The translations under genes were made by a program, and so were the position numbers. Below the pieces are notes generated by a model. The model was not told the DNA's origin. It was given only the letters and a program-made list of their open reading frames with translations, and did not search any database. Shown here one piece after another: positions 37,142-47,100 of a stretch of DNA of 64,000 nt. The stretch is from a virus: positions 64,001 to 128,000 of IMG/VR virus record IMGVR_UViG_3300042934_001067. One strand, 5' to 3'. How positions within the stretch are numbered: position 1 is the first letter of the stretch; each line of letters begins with the position of its first letter.

Positions 37142-37567
37142 ATGCGCACGCGGCCTCGGGGAGGGGTCTACAGGTCCGCCAAGGGGTGGGAGCGGCATGC
37201 GGAGTTGGTGCAGTCACGCCGCTTGTGTGTGAGCGGGAAGATCACGTTCATCGCGAGGTCCGACGCGGAGGAGTTCGTCGCCTCGGACCGGGGTGAGCAC
37301 GACGCGCAGCGGATCTACGACTGCTCTCTGTGCGGCTGGATGCACACGACGTCGGGCGGGGGCAGCCAGAGGTACTTCGACCCCCGGGCGAAGCGAGTGA
37401 ACAAGAGCCGCTTGTACGCCTCGAAGCAGCTGCCTCGCCTCGGTCAGTGCCGGGTGGTCGCACAGAGCGTGAAGCAGGGGTGGATCGAGTTCGAGGACGG
37501 CAACGGCCGGATTCGACGGTGGTCCACGGTGGGCTGGAGACGGCTGATGCGGCCGTATGAGCCCTAG
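37142..37567 (+). CDS. Phage-type Zn-binding protein
   Basis: CVSGK...RIYDCSLCGWMHTTS; SD GGAGGAG. Confidence 0.7.
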   Translation: MRTRPRGGVYRSAKGWERHAELVQSRRLCVSGKITFIARSDAEEFVASDRGEHDAQRIYDCSLCGWMHTTSGGGSQRYFDPRAKRVNKSRLYASKQLPRLGQCRVVAQSVKQGWIEFEDGNGRIRRWSTVGWRRLMRPYEP

Positions 37568-37620
37568 ATGCTTCAATGTCCTCGCGCGGGCCGGGGAGGC
37601 CTGGCAGAAGGGCGGGGACG

Positions 37621-37971
37621 ATGCGCAGGGCGGGGCTGGCCGTGGTGGCCGCCGTGGTGGTGCTGGTGTCGGGGTGCGGGGGCTCCGACGACGGCGGCGG
37701 GGAGAGCAGCTCGGTGCCGTACGGGGCGCGGACGTGTTCGGACTGGTCCGGTCGGATGGACGACACGGAGCGGTGGGACGCGGCCGAGGAGCTGCTGGTG
37801 AACGCGAAGGGCACGGACGGCGCCGAGGGGGACCGGGCGCCGTCGGCGAGCACGCTGAAGCAGTTCTCGTCCGACCTGGACACGCTGTGCGGGCGGAGGG
37901 CGGGGGACGAGATGCTGGCGCCGCTCGCGGACGAGCTGTACACGCTGAACCGGGCGTACTACAGCATCTGA
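37621..37971 (+). CDS. Lipoprotein
   Basis: MRRAGLAVVAAVVVLVSGC lipobox. Confidence 0.75.
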   Translation: MRRAGLAVVAAVVVLVSGCGGSDDGGGESSSVPYGARTCSDWSGRMDDTERWDAAEELLVNAKGTDGAEGDRAPSASTLKQFSSDLDTLCGRRAGDEMLAPLADELYTLNRAYYSI

Positions 37972-40473: not shown

Positions 40474-42417
40474 TTACAGCGTGGCGGGTGTGCTGGGGCG
40501 GCCGAAGAGTCTGGCCGGGTGGCGGGTGCCGCCGATGAAGGTGACGACTTCCTCGGCGTCCCAGTGGTGCTCGTCCAGGCGCGGCATGAAGCGGTGGTGC
40601 TGGCCGACGTAGGCGAGGGTGAGGTGCGGAGTCCAGCCGTGTTCGGAGGGCAGGCGGTAGCCGTGGCCTTCGAGGTAGGCGGCGAGGCTGGAGTGCATCT
40701 GGGCGCCGCTGGGGATGTCGGCCGCCGCCCACAGGACGTGCTCGCCCTTGAAGGCGTTGTTGAAGGTGCCGATGCCGCCGATGCGGACGTGGACGGGCTT
40801 GTGGCGGGCGGCCCAGGCGCCGACGACCTGCGGGAGCAGCTGGAGCTGCTCGCGGGTGTAGTCGGTGGTGTTGCCGAGGTAGGCGAGGGTGACGTGGAGC
40901 TGGTCGGCGGGCTGGCCGTCCTCGCGGGCCAGCTGTTCAGCGACCTCGCGCGGCGGCACGAGCGCCACCATCACGCCCTCGTCGTGGAGGACGGCTGCCG
41001 CCTGCCGCTGCAGGAACTGCTGCTCGGCCGCCGTGGCCTGGACAGCGGCGGTGTGGTGGGTCGGCTCGGTCCACCCGTCGTCCGGCCCGTGGACGGCGGG
41101 GTGCTCGATGTGGGGTCCGTTGTAGCCCCACTCGTTGATGTCGTTGCCGTCGGTGTGGACGTGCTTGGCTGGGACGGTGGCCTTCAGTACGGGCCAGTCC
41201 TTGGAGGGGTCGTCCGAGTGCATGCCGTGTTCTAGGGCGTACTGGGAGGAGGTGGAGACCCAGTCGCCGGTGCGGATGCTGGTGGTGCCGTGGGGGACGG
41301 ACCGGTAGATCGTGACCGGCGCCTCGGGATTGCCCTTGGCGCGGTGGACGGCCTTCAGCGACTCCTCGTGCGGCTCTCCGATCTCGCCCCAGTCGGGGTT
41401 GTCCAGCCCTTCCTGGTTGAACGCTCCGCCGTCGCCGTTGGGGCGGGTGGGGTCGTGCAGTGGAGCGTGTTCGGGTCCAGGCGCGCGGTGCTGCATCCGG
41501 TAGTCGTCGTCCATGGACGCAGTCTCCTGCAGGCCAGTCTCGCGGAAGTAGTCTGTCAGGCTGGAGAGTCGGTTGATGGCCTTGTCGTAGTCGTGGAGGC
41601 CGACGTAGCCGATGTGGAGGGTGCCGTCGTCCAGGTCGCGGTGGATGACGCGATGGCCGCGCGAGGCCTTGGTGGAGTTCCAGCCCTTGAGCTTCAGGGT
41701 CAAGGCGTGAGTCTGCAGCCCCTCGTCGCCACGTTGCAGGGCATTGATGGTGCTGGCCACGCGCTTGCGGCTGTCGCCGTCGAGCTTGAGCAGCTCCTTC
41801 TTCGCGGACGGGTGGAAGGAGACCTGGCGCGGGCCTACAGGCCCAGCTCCTCCTTGATCGGCTCCCACGGCAGGTGCTGCTCCTGCGGGGTCTTCGCCCG
41901 CTCCTGCAGCTCCGTCTCCAGCTCCGGGCTGACGGCGTGGCCGTCCTCGTCCTGCGGTTCGGGTGCTGTCGGCTCCATTTCGCTCCTTCCGGAAGTGCGC
42001 CGTGGCGGTGTGCGAGGGCTTCCAGCCCTCGTGGTCGTCCAGGCCCTGTTCGTCGCTCAGGTAGTCGGGCGACCACCGAACTGGCACGTGTGAGAGGCCA
42101 GCCTTGGCGGCGGCCCAGTAGCGGTGCGTGCCGTCGTTGATGTAGGGGGTCCCGTCCTGCTTCCTCCACAGGTGGATGGGGTGCTCGATGCCGCGCTGGC
42201 GGACGTCGTGCACGAGCGCGTGCAGGTGCTCGGGCTCGTAGCGGTCGTTCGCCATGTCGTCCGCGCTCCACTGCGCGACGTGCCCCATGGTGATCGGATT
42301 GCCGTGCTGGTCGCTGCCGTACTCGGAGTGCATGCGCGCTATGTCGTCCACGTGCATCATCTCGTCCGGCTGATGGGCTGCCGTACGGAAGAACGCGGTG
42401 GCGCTGTGCTCGGTCAT
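40474..42417 (-). CDS. Polyvalent protein: ParB-like + RelE/ParE-like + ART-like + 2H phosphoesterase
   Basis: DGTHRYWAA; VSFHPSAKKELLKL...HRVIH; TIYRSV...WVSTS...EWGY; HVTL and HLTL. Confidence 0.8.
   Translation of the reverse strand: MTEHSATAFFRTAAHQPDEMMHVDDIARMHSEYGSDQHGNPITMGHVAQWSADDMANDRYEPEHLHALVHDVRQRGIEHPIHLWRKQDGTPYINDGTHRYWAAAKAGLSHVPVRWSPDYLSDEQGLDDHEGWKPSHTATAHFRKERNGADSTRTAGRGRPRRQPGAGDGAAGAGEDPAGAAPAVGADQGGAGPVGPRQVSFHPSAKKELLKLDGDSRKRVASTINALQRGDEGLQTHALTLKLKGWNSTKASRGHRVIHRDLDDGTLHIGYVGLHDYDKAINRLSSLTDYFRETGLQETASMDDDYRMQHRAPGPEHAPLHDPTRPNGDGGAFNQEGLDNPDWGEIGEPHEESLKAVHRAKGNPEAPVTIYRSVPHGTTSIRTGDWVSTSSQYALEHGMHSDDPSKDWPVLKATVPAKHVHTDGNDINEWGYNGPHIEHPAVHGPDDGWTEPTHHTAAVQATAAEQQFLQRQAAAVLHDEGVMVALVPPREVAEQLAREDGQPADQLHVTLAYLGNTTDYTREQLQLLPQVVGAWAARHKPVHVRIGGIGTFNNAFKGEHVLWAAADIPSGAQMHSSLAAYLEGHGYRLPSEHGWTPHLTLAYVGQHHRFMPRLDEHHWDAEEVVTFIGGTRHPARLFGRPSTPATL
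41835..41978 (-). CDS. Overprinted 47-aa antitoxin-like ORF
   Basis: AAGGAG-ATG; MEPTAPEPQDEDGHAVSPELETELQERAKTPQEQHLPWEPIKEELGL; ends just before the RelE domain. Confidence 0.65.
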   Translation of the reverse strand: MEPTAPEPQDEDGHAVSPELETELQERAKTPQEQHLPWEPIKEELGL

Positions 42418-44639
42418 GCGGCCTTCTCCTGGTCCGTGGCGGCGGCCACGCCCGCGTGGGCGTGCTTCCAGTCAATCAGCTGCTGCAACGGCTGGTCAGG
42501 GGCCTTGTCGAGGGCTTTCCAGACTGCGTTGCTGGGGTCGTAGAGGCCCGTTCCTTCGGGGCCGAATGCGCTGTGGCGGTCAGCGTGGAGGTAATCGTAC
42601 AACGCTGCACCTTCCCTTTCGCGCACTCCGTCAGGAAGTTCCCGGACGGCCCCGATCAGTTTCTGCAGCGCCTCGAACACGTCCCAGGTGGACTCGGGGA
42701 GTTTTTCGGGGCTGAAGTCGTCTGGCACTTCAACAGGTTTCACGGCCCATTCGTCGCGGGTGATGTCGTACGCGGCGTAGGGCTTTATGTCCCGTATGTC
42801 ATAGCTAGATGGGTTTACATACCAAGTATTCTCCCAGGGGCCGGTCTCCTTGCCGTCTGGGCCGGGGAGCATGCGGGCGTCGTCGTTGAGGCCGTGGCGC
42901 AGTTCGTCGGTGAGCTTCTCGTCCACGGCAGCCGGGGGCTCGCCGACGAAGGTGTCCACATGGTGGTTGAGGGCGTCGTGGTCGATGCCGATGAGGATGT
43001 CGAGGTCGCCGTTGCCGTAGAAGTGGCTGGCCTCGCTGCCTGCGAGGTAGACGCGGGCCCAGGACTGCCAGGAGTCACCGTACTTGGGCGCCCAGAAGCT
43101 GTTGAGCAGGCTGAGCAGGTGCTGGCGGACGATCGGGTGCATGCGCTCGTTCTCGTCGAACAGGCGCGGGTCCAGGCCCTTCTCCCCCGGCGCGAAGAAG
43201 TGGTCGCGGGGCAGCCAGTCGTGCTCGTGCTGGTAGGGCTCGTGGTTGTCGGGGACGGGGGTGGTGAAGGCCGTCCGCTCGCCGATCCCCTTCAGCCACG
43301 CCTGCGCGTCGTCGGAGAGCCGGTCGGAGTGCTGGAGGTCTGGGCGCTGCTCGCGCGCTCGTCGCAGCAGCTCGGTTGCGATACCTCGGCGCTGGTGTTC
43401 GTCCCTCACGTTCATGTTGCCGATGACGCCGTCGTCGCCCCAGTTGACGTACCCGGCCATGCTGCCCTCGGGGGTGCGCATGGTGACGGCCTTGGGTTCG
43501 GTGACCGTGTGGTAGGTGTGGCCGGTTTTGGAGGTGAAGTCGCCGTCAGCCCATTCCGGCCTCCCGGCCGAGGCGGTCTTTCCGTGGCCGCCGTCGGGAA
43601 GGCGGCCGTCGCAGGTGGCATCGTCGGGGCTGTTGGCGGGGACGGTGAGGCTGCCGTCGCAGTGGTAGCACTCGAAGCCGGTGTCGTGCTCGCCGGTGCC
43701 GCCACAGCAGGGGCAGGGCTTCGTGGCTGTGGCCATGCGGGGGTGGCCGGTGAGGTGGTATTCGGTGCGGGCGCTGTCGAGGTCGGCCTTGGGGATGGTC
43801 GGCTTGTCGACGGCGGTGAGTCCGATGTGACTGGGGTGGATGTCGGCGGGGACGTGTTCGCCTGCGGCGAGGGCGGGGTGGTCTTGGGGGACCTTTACGC
43901 CGGGACCGGGCAGGCCGTAGGCGCTGCGGCTGACGCGGAGGGGGACGTGGTCCATACCGAGGGCGCGGGCGGCGCGCAGGCGGTGGTTGCCCTCGCCCAG
44001 GTAGGCCTCGCCGCTGGCGGGGTGGTAGTGGAGCATGAGGGGTTCCATCTCGCCGCTGGCGGCAAGGTGGTGGCCGACTGCCTTGGCGTGCTCGGGGTCG
44101 GTTTCCTGGCTGGCATAGCGCTCGACTTCGTGGCGGGGGACCATTTCGACGTTGGTCCAGTTGCCGACGCGGGCGCGGATGTGGTGGCCGTGGGGGTTGA
44201 GGAGGCGGGAGGGGACGTCGTCGCCGTCCTGGACGGCCGCCGTGGCGGTGGCTGTGGCCATGGTGCGCCCCCGAGTGACCTTCTTGCCGTCGGTGTAGCC
44301 CGCCCACCACGCCTTGCCTGCGTCGGTGCGGTCGCCGTGGTCGATGGGGGTGGCGGGGTGGCGGCGCTGCATCTCGTCCATGAGGGCGGAGCCGACGCCC
44401 TTGCGCTGGTGGGCCTCTTCGGTGCCGAGGTGCTCGATGAGGATCTTGTCGGCTTTGCGGCGGGGGACGTGGTAGGTGAGGGTGCCCATGCGGTCGCCGG
44501 AGCTGGGCTCGACGGCGTGCAGGTGGATCTTGGTGGGGCGTTTGGTGCCACCGGTGTCGACCTCTTCGTGTTCGAAGTCGATCCCCTGGGGGTCGGCCGC
44601 CGCCTGGCGGAAGAAGCTGGTCGCGCTGATGTCCGTCAC
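42414..44639 (-). CDS. Polyvalent protein: GNAT + ParB-like + Zn finger + GNAT + Pol-beta nucleotidyltransferase
   Basis: HQRKGVGSAL; EGNHRLRAA; CPCCGGTG; HQRRGIATELL; LAGSEAS...GDLDILI. Confidence 0.8.
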   Translation of the reverse strand: MTDISATSFFRQAAADPQGIDFEHEEVDTGGTKRPTKIHLHAVEPSSGDRMGTLTYHVPRRKADKILIEHLGTEEAHQRKGVGSALMDEMQRRHPATPIDHGDRTDAGKAWWAGYTDGKKVTRGRTMATATATAAVQDGDDVPSRLLNPHGHHIRARVGNWTNVEMVPRHEVERYASQETDPEHAKAVGHHLAASGEMEPLMLHYHPASGEAYLGEGNHRLRAARALGMDHVPLRVSRSAYGLPGPGVKVPQDHPALAAGEHVPADIHPSHIGLTAVDKPTIPKADLDSARTEYHLTGHPRMATATKPCPCCGGTGEHDTGFECYHCDGSLTVPANSPDDATCDGRLPDGGHGKTASAGRPEWADGDFTSKTGHTYHTVTEPKAVTMRTPEGSMAGYVNWGDDGVIGNMNVRDEHQRRGIATELLRRAREQRPDLQHSDRLSDDAQAWLKGIGERTAFTTPVPDNHEPYQHEHDWLPRDHFFAPGEKGLDPRLFDENERMHPIVRQHLLSLLNSFWAPKYGDSWQSWARVYLAGSEASHFYGNGDLDILIGIDHDALNHHVDTFVGEPPAAVDEKLTDELRHGLNDDARMLPGPDGKETGPWENTWYVNPSSYDIRDIKPYAAYDITRDEWAVKPVEVPDDFSPEKLPESTWDVFEALQKLIGAVRELPDGVREREGAALYDYLHADRHSAFGPEGTGLYDPSNAVWKALDKAPDQPLQQLIDWKHAHAGVAAATDQEKAA

Positions 44640-44901: not shown

Positions 44902-47100
44902 TCAGCGGCGATATCCGGTCCTTGTGCGGCCGAGTCCCTGTTCCCATCCGGGGCGGCCGGTGCGGGTGCGGGTGAACTGGCGCAGGGCGTCGAGGCGGCC
45001 CTGGAGGTCGTGGTCTGCGGAGGTCATTTCGGGGCTGTGGGGGCTGGATCCGTGCAGGCCGCCCTGCATGGCGCCCTGGGCGCTGGCGGCGTTGAGCTGT
45101 TCCTTGTAGCCGCTGATCCAGTCGCCGATGAGGGAGTAGGTTGTGATCATGATCGCGTCGGCGATGTCTTTGGTCTGGACCGGTCCGACGGTGGGGTGGT
45201 CGACGCGGTTGACGTTCGGTGGTTTCTGGAGGAACTTCAGCTCCAGCTCGCCGTCCTCGTAGGCAGGGGCGTGGACGAGGCCGAGGTTGATGGCGGCCTT
45301 GAAGGTCTCGGCGTACTTCCAGTTGATCGCGTTGGTTGCGGTGCGCTCGAAGATGGTGACGCGTTTGGCCATGCGGGCCCGGGCGACGCGCTTGGTGAGG
45401 GACTGGATGCTGGAGACCGAGTTGTACTGGTCGAAGGTGAATTCCTCGGGCTGGTAGACGCTGATGATCTCGTCCCAGATCCAGTTCTCGACTTCCTCGT
45501 AGTCGATGGTGTGATTGTCGAACGCGGCCGGGTCAAAGTGGTGGATCTTGTCGAAGACGGCGTGGGGGCGGCCGTCGTCGTCGGTCTCGGTGTGGCCGAC
45601 GGCGATGCCGAAGCGGCAGTTCACGGAGCTGGGGTCGGCGTGGCCCTTGTAGACGTAGGCGAGGATGCCGCGCTCGGTGGGGACGATGAGGGGGCTGCCG
45701 TAGCGCTCGGGGCGGGCGTACCAGGGGGAGAAGACGGCTTCGACCTTGGCGGGATCGAGGTAGGCGTCGAGGACGGTGGCCCACTGGGCGCGGCGTTCGA
45801 CCTTGAAGGTGTCAGGGTCGGCCTTCTCCAGTTTGCGCATTTCTTCGTCGTAGGTCTGGATGGCGCCCTTGAGGACGCGGAAGCCGGGAAGGGGGGTGTT
45901 CTCGTACTCGGCGTTGTCTCCCTGGAAGCCTTCAGGGAAGAGGGGCAGTTCGTGGGCGATCTGCCAGTCGAGGTAGATGTCCCAGCTGGGGAGCTGGATC
46001 ATCATGACGGCGGGGTAGGTGGGGGTGCCGTCGTCCTCGTACTGGGTGGCGCGCAGCCAGTTCTCGTAGAACTTGCCGCTCATCTCCCAGGGGGAGCTGG
46101 GTTCGACGATGAAGCCGTCGCGGCCGAACTGGTCGAGGGAGGGTGTGGAGGCGTCGTAGACCTCGCCTGCGGAGCGGTTGGCGCCCGCGTTGACGACGTG
46201 GGCCATCTCGTCGAAGCCGATGATGAAGGAGGCGGGGCCTCGTCCGGCCATGACGGTGGACTCCTTCGGGAGGATCTCGAAGGTGGCCATGTCCATGGCG
46301 GTCTTGATGCCCTTCTTGCGCATCTCCTCCATGCGGACGAAGTCGTGGGGGGCGTAGACGGAGAGCTTCTCGCCGAGCGAGCTGGCGATGTAGGGGGCGA
46401 AGCAGGGGGCGCCGGTGACGACGTTGACGAAGTCGCGCCAGAGGTTCTGCTTGGCCTGGTCGCGCTTGCCCGCGAAGATCAGGGCGGCGAGCTTCTTGTC
46501 ACGGTCGACGCCGTAATGCTCCTGGGGGTCGCCCTTGGCCATGTAGCACCACAGGACGTACGCCATGGCCAGGGCGCTGATGTGGCCCTTCCCAGCGCGG
46601 CGGCCCATGACCAGGAGGATCTCTTTGAACCAGCGGTAGCCGAGCGCCTTGCAGGCGCGCATGCGGCCGAGGATGTCCGGGGTGCCGGACAGGGGCATCT
46701 TGGGGGCGTCCTCGTTGCCTTCGAGCAGGACCTGCTGGGCCAGCTCGTCGAGGGCGTCGGTCATGATGTCGTCGACCTCGGCCGCCAGGGCCGCTTCTGG
46801 GTCTTCGGTCTCGGCGAGGGCGGCGGCGCGGGCGGCACGCTGCTCGTTGGCGCTCTTGGCGGTGCGGTATGCCTCGTCCCACTCGGCGACGACACGGTAG
46901 TCGTACTCGGTGAACAGGTCCTCGCGGAGAAAAAAGCATTTCAGAAGGGTTGCCTGCCGGGGGTACAGGTTGGGCCTGCTCAGGTACCTCGGTGAGACGA
47001 CGAAGGTGATCGGGTCGGGGACGTCGAGCCCCAGGTACAGGTGGTGAATCGCCAGGGGGTCGAATCCTGCCAGCGGCGATGTGTCTTCCGGCGTGCTCAT
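44902..47100 (-). CDS. Terminase large subunit
   Basis: MGRRAGKG Walker A, IIGFDEMAH Walker B, HADPS...FDQYNS...KDIADA nuclease. Confidence 0.85.
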   Translation of the reverse strand: MSTPEDTSPLAGFDPLAIHHLYLGLDVPDPITFVVSPRYLSRPNLYPRQATLLKCFFLREDLFTEYDYRVVAEWDEAYRTAKSANEQRAARAAALAETEDPEAALAAEVDDIMTDALDELAQQVLLEGNEDAPKMPLSGTPDILGRMRACKALGYRWFKEILLVMGRRAGKGHISALAMAYVLWCYMAKGDPQEHYGVDRDKKLAALIFAGKRDQAKQNLWRDFVNVVTGAPCFAPYIASSLGEKLSVYAPHDFVRMEEMRKKGIKTAMDMATFEILPKESTVMAGRGPASFIIGFDEMAHVVNAGANRSAGEVYDASTPSLDQFGRDGFIVEPSSPWEMSGKFYENWLRATQYEDDGTPTYPAVMMIQLPSWDIYLDWQIAHELPLFPEGFQGDNAEYENTPLPGFRVLKGAIQTYDEEMRKLEKADPDTFKVERRAQWATVLDAYLDPAKVEAVFSPWYARPERYGSPLIVPTERGILAYVYKGHADPSSVNCRFGIAVGHTETDDDGRPHAVFDKIHHFDPAAFDNHTIDYEEVENWIWDEIISVYQPEEFTFDQYNSVSSIQSLTKRVARARMAKRVTIFERTATNAINWKYAETFKAAINLGLVHAPAYEDGELELKFLQKPPNVNRVDHPTVGPVQTKDIADAIMITTYSLIGDWISGYKEQLNAASAQGAMQGGLHGSSPHSPEMTSADHDLQGRLDALRQFTRTRTGRPGWEQGLGRTRTGYRR

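Follow-up and report, generated by a model that had tools for sequence, protein, structure and literature searches.

About 145 bases of a phage gene for a polyvalent protein of 647 residues are read in two frames, in that an ORF of 47 codons with its own Shine-Dalgarno (SD) sequence and ATG lies wholly inside the gene, in the +1 frame, just ahead of the segment for a RelE-like domain. Judging from the sequences of relatives, we are close to certain that this dual coding is real and conserved. The fuller explanation, in which the nested peptide is a minimal antitoxin against the RelE domain of the gene that contains it (hereafter, the host gene), is a reasonably probable one.

The window analysed here is a stretch of 64,000 nucleotides, corresponding to bases 64001-128000 of a single virus record of 156,276 bases with 69% G+C. 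Encoded in the virus are a terminase, portal, head protease, major head protein and tail sheath. Since its nearest relatives are contigs of 150-157 kb in Streptomyces assemblies, one of which was deposited as plasmid pRLB1-9.1, the virus is most readily interpreted as a plasmid-like myovirus prophage of streptomycetes. The host gene and its surroundings are laid out as follows.

44902..47100, minus strand: terminase large subunit gene, upstream of both mosaic genes and on the same strand
42414..44639, minus strand: gene for a polyvalent protein of 741 aa with two GNAT domains and a ParB-like domain, upstream of the host gene
40474..42417, minus strand: host gene (polyvalent protein of 647 aa), overlapping at its start with the stop of the polyprotein gene upstream
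42405-42385, minus strand: boundary motif T-x-[FHY]-F-R, third copy
42079..42243, minus strand: ParB_N-like domain, below the Pfam cut-off
41989..42009, minus strand: boundary motif T-x-[FHY]-F-R, before the cassette
41563..41826, minus strand: domain of the RelE superfamily (aa 198-285), closest to YoeB, RelK and YafQ
41542..41562, minus strand: boundary motif T-x-[FHY]-F-R, after the RelE domain
41104..41529, minus strand: phrog_2579 domain, with a fold weakly like that of ADP-ribosyltransferases (ART)
40519..40998, minus strand: 2H/LigT phosphoesterase domain

The order in the 647-aa protein is thus ParB_N-like domain, linker, RelE-like domain, ART-like phrog_2579 domain and 2H phosphoesterase; several conflict-type enzyme domains are joined in one shuffled, phage-encoded polypeptide, as in the polyvalent class, and no metallopeptidase or MuF domain was matched in this protein. 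The motif T-x-[FHY]-F-R occurs at the N-termini of both polyproteins and flanks the cassette on either side; it is absent elsewhere among the approximately 37,000 residues scanned in this genome, the pattern having been defined after it was noticed. Possibly it marks the limits of the linker-plus-RelE module as a signal for targeting or cleavage. Between 40300 and 45000, neither a sigma-70 promoter nor a terminator was detected by a search that covers Streptomyces promoters poorly.

Two reading frames in the linker

The overlap contains the following elements.

41983..41988, minus strand: SD sequence AAGGAG of the nested ORF, 4 bases from the ATG and identical with host codons Lys144-Glu145
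41835..41978, minus strand: nested +1-frame ORF of 47 aa, with an acidic, antitoxin-tail-like product, wholly inside the 647-aa gene
41935..41958, minus strand: host-frame motif AG[RK]G[KR]PR, under purifying selection inside the overlap
41866..41868, minus strand: host-frame GTG, 14 codons ahead of the RelE domain and in frame with it, a candidate start
41835..41867, minus strand: antitoxin-like tail W..[VI]...LGL-stop in the +1 frame
41835..41840, minus strand: junction CTGTAG (CTGTGA in the relatives L015, L024, L029 and L030)

The first-pass annotation had described the +1 ORF with AAGGAG-ATG and an acidic product ending in PWEPIKEELGL, and a RelE-like domain beginning soon after the TAG; all of these are present, the domain starting three codons after the stop in the CTGTAG junction. 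The same annotation held that the RelE domain has no start codon of its own, which is correct insofar as CTGTAG provides no coupled GTG, but the GTG at 41868 is in frame and has AGGAG 11 bases upstream. Because this GTG derives from the codon preceding the Trp of the peptide and is missing in 6 of 24 loci, we regard it as a candidate start only.

Codon composition changes sharply within the gene. The G+C fractions at host codon positions 1/2/3 are 0.91/0.81/0.38 in the overlap versus 0.64/0.39/0.93 in the RelE domain; namely, the codon bias moves into the +1 phase across the overlap, and the shift in GC phase is seen in nearly all loci. When the host peptide was recoded 5000 times with the codon usage of the family, a host GC3 below 0.65 was never obtained (observed, 0.39), and the ATG and the stop were both retained in 0.3% of 5000 recodings. 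Outside the cassette, 68.6 kb of the same genes contained 10 comparable nested ORFs with SD and ATG, a single one of which had GC3 of at least 0.8. No stable RNA structure was predicted at the nested SD or at the junction, the SD region being weakly structured.

Both frames are also kept in homologues, where the earlier proposal could be checked. Of the 24 distinct loci in which the RelE domain is whole, 20 keep the SD, the ATG, 42-63 codons in the +1 frame and a stop positioned -14 to +4 nt from the RelE start, against a background of about 0.0015 per site; these loci are related and the RelE tree is mostly unresolved, so that the 20 are not independent events. The host frame is open through the overlap in every locus, though the upstream domains differ, and the product of the per-locus probabilities of an open host frame, about 1e-6, overstates the case because the loci are related. 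Of the less regular loci, L011 has only 63 codons of upstream sequence on its short contig, with no peptide match within, and L016 has an open +1 frame without a match to the peptide profile. In the distant locus L027 the ORF is present with a basic product that barely matches (E 0.15), and in L043, which like L037 and L038 is additional to the 24 loci and has tandem RelE domains, a nested version of 38 codons follows a strong SD. The nested peptide is retained in L037 and L038 despite inserts of 326 and about 130 codons, respectively, between the peptide and RelE. A gene caller lists the peptide of L037 as a free-standing gene, which we rejected on inspection of the frames, since these show nesting.

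The layout is shared by isolates as well as by viral contigs and metagenomes of several origins, and, among 71 proteins in which the upstream part is long, 50 have a motif-bearing linker. That the overlap is an assembly or frameshift artefact concealing separate genes, a concern raised with the original description, is thus practically discounted, because the same in-frame layout recurs in many independent assemblies. No match was obtained in annotated phages or PLSDB. A gapless match to the stretch was obtained in run X1, which may itself be the source of this DNA.

The two frames are selected in different halves of the overlap, the host frame holding its first third and the peptide holding the tail; we place very high confidence in this dual selection, which was drawn from the patterns of substitution described below. 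In the host-frame motif AG[RK]G[KR]PR, which is found in the 50 of 71 proteins mentioned above, both Gly residues and the final Arg do not vary among 20 loci and Pro is conserved in 19 of the 20, with all four synonymous codons being used, while the +1 residues opposite the motif vary freely; pN/pS over this region is 0.21 in the host frame versus 1.49 in the +1 frame. Conservation of a host motif through synonymous codons means that the host frame is translated through the overlap. The linker had been taken for low-complexity Gly/Ala/Arg filler, but this description does not fit the first part of the overlap, which holds the conserved and selected motif. In the +1 tail, on the other hand, Trp, Leu and Gly are each conserved in 14 of 15 and the final Leu in 15 of 15, and the host residues there alternate between Ala/Pro and Gly/Arg. 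Substitutions in the tail are conservative in the +1 frame only, with a mean BLOSUM score of +0.30 versus -0.87 and -1.14 in the other frames.

These observations also bear on the idea of a programmed frameshift that fuses the +1 peptide to RelE, or an upstream domain to the peptide. Two open frames do overlap for 47 codons, and fused antitoxin-toxin genes are known (PMC11980606), but no conserved slippery run was found in the junction sequences; the conserved SD-ATG and the selection on the host frame at the amino-acid level make a frameshift unnecessary, and we consider it very improbable.

A pN/pS test on the peptide in seven close relatives gave 0.8 for the main overlap and 1.38 for the tail, which is not a clearer signal than that of the other frames, pS being lowered by the dual constraint; with values near 1, the test therefore lends no support to fine-scale constraint on the peptide. 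These values could be expected if the +1 frame were a dispensable relic of a captured antitoxin gene, tolerated by the host linker, and so could L004 and L020, in which the peptide is kept with its stop lost and the +1 frame extended by 15 codons (L004 also has a weak SD). A relic would nonetheless be expected to drift back to a host GC3 near 0.85, whereas the SD, the ATG, the stop and the low host GC3 persist among loci with RelE identities of 52-91% and in the far loci L027 and L043, where the identities are lower. We hence consider a mere relic improbable.

The same near-neutral pN/pS would also suit a nested ORF translated mainly as a coupling device, which restarts ribosomes on the RelE half and in which the peptide itself is minor. 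In favor of such a device, four relatives have a coupled GTG, 18 of the 24 loci have an in-frame GTG 7-16 codons upstream, and gene callers often place the protein start at these GTGs. Nevertheless, GTA at the junction removes the coupled start in eleven loci, L037 and L038 have retained the peptide at a distance from RelE, and the tail is not only conserved, with conservative substitutions, but also similar to that of free antitoxins. Coupling as the main function is, therefore, unlikely, although it is the least improbable of the rival explanations.

The RelE-like domain and its putative partner

The model of the RelE domain (pLDDT 87.6) matched RelK, YoeB and YafQ in Foldseek with E of 2e-5 and TM of 0.75, and a VIA comparison of this YoeB/YafQ-like model gave Z of 12.5 and rmsd of 1.6 over 79 aligned residues. 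The invariant residues are, in domain numbering, His40, Lys53, Arg56, His58, Arg59, His62 and His78. His40 is aligned with Glu of the K-P-E motif of the YoeB type and His78 with residue 83 of YoeB, and both are invariant in 24 close members and also in distant members; the catalytic pairs are Glu46/His83 in YoeB and His50/His87 in YafQ (PMC5027501). With the RelE fold, the invariant His residues at catalytic positions and pN/pS of 0.39 among close relatives, the domain is likely to be an active ribosome-dependent mRNase. A profile search of 1.8 billion representatives retrieved 104 proteins, nearly all of which are long polyproteins, and the RelE family of the host gene is, as far as these sequences go, one that lives as a polyprotein module.

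The peptide itself resembles the portion of an antitoxin that binds the toxin, with the DNA-binding domain missing. The peptide of the window had no match in Pfam, NCBIfam, PHROGs or PADLOC, and a sequence search of PDB with the peptide profile gave nothing useful. Among 19 family peptides, three matched NF048017 (RelB-like; best E 0.008, 17.6 bits versus a cut-off of 31.9) and one matched TIGR02574 (E 0.003, 16.4 bits versus a cut-off of 50), with every family match falling below the curated cut-off at 15-18 bits. After its own family, the peptide profile retrieved Phd/YefM and DUF6290 proteins at E of 0.03-3, and the last 24-28 residues of these proteins are aligned with the peptide tail, the pairwise scores being inflated because these proteins were picked by the same profile search. 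In two retrieved proteins whose context was examined, the gene is directly before a PF05016 toxin; one such free Phd/YefM antitoxin is matched by the tail over its last 28 residues. Matches in the ESM Atlas were all below 0.9 and serve as leads only, the nearest named clusters being DUF6290, RelB3_C and Unstab_antitox. The family peptides are 38-63 aa long and have no Pfam match to a DNA-binding domain. The proposal that the tail is typical of antitoxins paired with RelE/ParE thus holds to the extent that it resembles the ends of free Phd/YefM antitoxins encoded before toxins, but no curated cut-off is reached.

Prediction of the complex between the peptide and the RelE domain, a check suggested together with the original proposal, leans weakly in the same direction: the score was 0.46 against 0.00 for the best control, although this score may reflect memory because like complexes have already been solved. 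The mark used was reached by 58 of 80 solved pairs and by 2 of 110 mismatched pairs, and it was reached at 0.60 or below by only 7 of the 80 solved pairs, yet by both of the passing mismatches. The runs shared at least 80% of contacts with a partner pLDDT of at least 63.

The weakness of this score might be taken to mean that the peptide is made but has another target, such as the ART-like domain of the polyprotein, or a role in processing or packaging; in L037, an ART-type domain and not RelE comes next after the peptide ORF. Both L037 and L038 still carry RelE, however, and the peptide ORF accompanies RelE while the neighbouring domains are swapped. Furthermore, an element in Streptomyces sp. 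MH60 has a deletion that runs from the boundary motif ahead of the SD up to the final 24 residues of RelE, so that the peptide and two-thirds of RelE were lost together with the 2H domain being kept, and no peptide match was found anywhere in the MH60 genome. A target other than RelE would accordingly be rather improbable. A contig of run X2 spans a replacement like that in MH60.

Possible mechanism and origin

Ribosomes starting at 42417 would produce the 647-aa polyvalent protein with a RelE domain of the ribosome-dependent mRNase type, and those starting at the internal SD-ATG would produce a 47-aa minimal antitoxin composed of a toxin-binding helix and the tail with no DNA-binding domain. 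Because both are on the same message, the peptide would be produced whenever the toxin is. By binding to the RelE domain, the peptide would allow translation to continue in the producing cell. We infer from the sequence features above that the peptide is probably translated, binds the domain and neutralises it.

What the polyprotein is for is a separate question. The polyprotein or its modules might be packaged into virions and, free of the peptide, act in the next cell, but we hold this part only tentatively; the terminase alone adjoins the polyprotein operon, and since the head genes are 60-80 kb away, virion delivery is here an analogy. The main alternative, which remains a live one, is an addiction or abortive-infection module of a plasmid-like prophage. 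A nested antitoxin would serve the delivery role and the addiction or abortive-infection role alike. A relative of phrog_2579 is located among structural genes in Gordonia phage Skog.

Regarding the origin, the first-pass annotation had proposed that a whole toxin-antitoxin operon was captured in frame. Its prediction of an ancestral coupled junction is borne out by the four relatives with CTGTGA, in which the stop overlaps a GTG start, while eleven loci have GTA (TAG or TAA) at this position. Both states of the junction can be accounted for if an antitoxin-toxin pair was captured by read-through and the toxin afterwards lost its free start, and we infer such an origin; as the RelE tree is mostly unresolved, the order from the coupled GTG to GTA cannot be stated. 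Capture of a whole operon is plausible, but a search of short RelE matches found no free-standing donor operon of this RelE family, and the peptide is without the DNA-binding half. The short matches look like C-terminal domains called from a coupled GTG or like fragments on short contigs. Also, the claim that no toxin is made outside the polyprotein may not apply to the relatives with a coupled GTG and possibly not to the window either.

Relation to known systems

With YefM-YoeB, RelJK and DinJ-YafQ, the system shares the RelE fold and His at the positions of Glu46/His83 in YoeB and His50/His87 in YafQ. As in type II toxin-antitoxin operons, a small acidic ORF with its own start and a Phd/YefM-like tail is directly upstream of the toxin, and stop-start coupling is shared in some relatives of the host gene. 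The toxin here is, in contrast, an internal domain (aa 198-285 of 647) and not a monodomain gene, and the partner ORF is inside the toxin gene in another frame, with no DNA-binding domain and no promoter found. The antitoxins of TIGR02574/PF09720 and NF048017 share with the peptide a short acidic helix followed by Arg and a tail with Trp; nonetheless, the peptides score 15-18 bits versus cut-offs of 50 and 32, with matches in one to three of 19.

Polyvalent proteins of phages and conjugative elements are, according to one proposal, packaged and then injected (Iyer et al. 2017, PMC5512222). In the parts of that description available to us, they resemble the host protein in their mosaic of ParB-like, BECR-fold RNase, ART-like, 2H and GNAT domains (the last being in the next gene here), in being encoded by phages next to the terminase, and in extensive domain shuffling. 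The RNases in the same parts belong to the PBECR clade, whereas the one here is YoeB/YafQ-like, and no nested inhibitor gene is described there.

In MuF polymorphic toxins of temperate phages, a toxin encoded in the head region has a small protective partner, which is a separate downstream immunity gene. Our case differs from them in that no MuF domain was detected and in that the partner is nested upstream of the toxin domain.

The nearest precedent in layout is RpnL/RpnS (Zhong et al. 2023; PMC10400984), whose antitoxin is predicted to be initiated within the toxin gene itself. RpnS shares its frame with the toxin and is identical to the C-terminus of the latter, while the peptide here is out of frame and unrelated to the host protein; also, the carrier is a phage and not a host defence gene. 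The theme of an antitoxin within a toxin gene is hence known in frame from Rpn, and an unrelated, out-of-frame peptide extends it. In our search, from which subscription journals were mostly absent, no published description of an overprinted or out-of-frame antitoxin was found.

With polyvalent proteins, it is still to be explained how a phage can produce a large toxic protein of several domains and yet not shut down its own production, and many multidomain RelE-fold proteins were set aside in a survey with no antitoxin identifiable (Gerdes 2025, PMC11980606). If our reading is true, a nested out-of-frame antitoxin would answer both the problem of self-toxicity and that of antitoxin-less multidomain RelE proteins. 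We could, with some reservation, go further and propose that RelE mRNases in a widespread family of actinobacterial phages and plasmid-like prophages are carried in virion-delivered polyvalent proteins with the cognate antitoxin encoded out of frame inside and selection split between the frames, which would represent a general design of self-immunity for multi-domain phage effectors. The overlap would in addition be a clean natural case of a fully nested prokaryotic overlap in which selection is divided between frames. Such a nested arrangement is easily overlooked by gene annotation, and, in phage proteins of high GC, low-complexity linkers of Gly/Ala/Arg can be a sign of hidden genes. Since cultured Streptomyces isolates, such as Streptomyces sp. 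cg35, A0642 and NBC_01242, carry the element, tests are feasible; one further carrier was found among 400 Streptomyces genomes sampled.

Host-frame motif and nested ORF variants in relatives

Where the 647-aa polyprotein gene overlaps the nested antitoxin-like ORF, its own frame carries a conserved motif:

41958-41935, minus strand: host-frame motif, read as GRGRPRR

Its second Arg is Lys in most relatives. The sequence resembles the core of an AT-hook, and DNA binding or a processing signal could be its role. The motif is common to about 15 proteins of the distant RelE subfamily of L027, a relative's locus in which the nested ORF (L027:4124-4264, own numbering, as for all loci here) is kept with a strong SD, although its product is basic and the usual tail is missing from it. 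It is absent from the 38-codon nested ORF of L043 (G316:C20:25235-28531), behind which, as the single such ORF, two divergent RelE domains lie in tandem. In L004 (7200-7240) and L020 (800-840), the stop of the nested ORF is lost, resulting in a run of 15 codons into the RelE-coding region; the L020 ORF also contains an N run. In L037 (960-990), furthermore, an ART-type (ADP-ribosyltransferase) domain is inserted exactly at the junction of nested ORF and RelE domain, and its first residues resemble those of RelE, which suggests recombination at a short shared pattern.

Modules and borders of the polyproteins

40998-40519, minus strand: 2H phosphoesterase, C-terminal module
42405-42385, 42009-41989, 41562-41542 and the start of 44639-42414, minus strand: copies of a repeated motif, T-x-[FHY]-F-R

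Across the family of the host gene, no module is as constant as the 2H phosphoesterase, whereas the middle domains are exchanged (Arr-like ART, ART-PolyVal, and GNAT). T-x-[FHY]-F-R marks polyprotein N-termini and module borders and, within this genome, is confined to the two polyproteins; linkers of the form xTA[SA] are repeated as well. In the upstream polyprotein (44639-42414, minus strand), the C-terminal third has a G-D-x-D pattern, which is typical of Pol-beta nucleotidyltransferases; no family match was found.

The phrog_2579 domain

41529-41104, minus strand: phrog_2579 domain, named "ParB C-terminal domain" in PHROGs

This domain has a confident predicted fold (pLDDT 89). The PHROGs label may be wrong, because VIA matches of the model, weak (best Z, 4.6) but consistent, are nearly all ADP-ribosyltransferase-fold proteins.

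Elsewhere in the window, a mostly plus-strand gene block (29881-37971) interrupts the otherwise minus-strand genome; by inspection, it includes JmjC/cupin-like (306 aa), recombinase-like (316 aa), and HTH genes.
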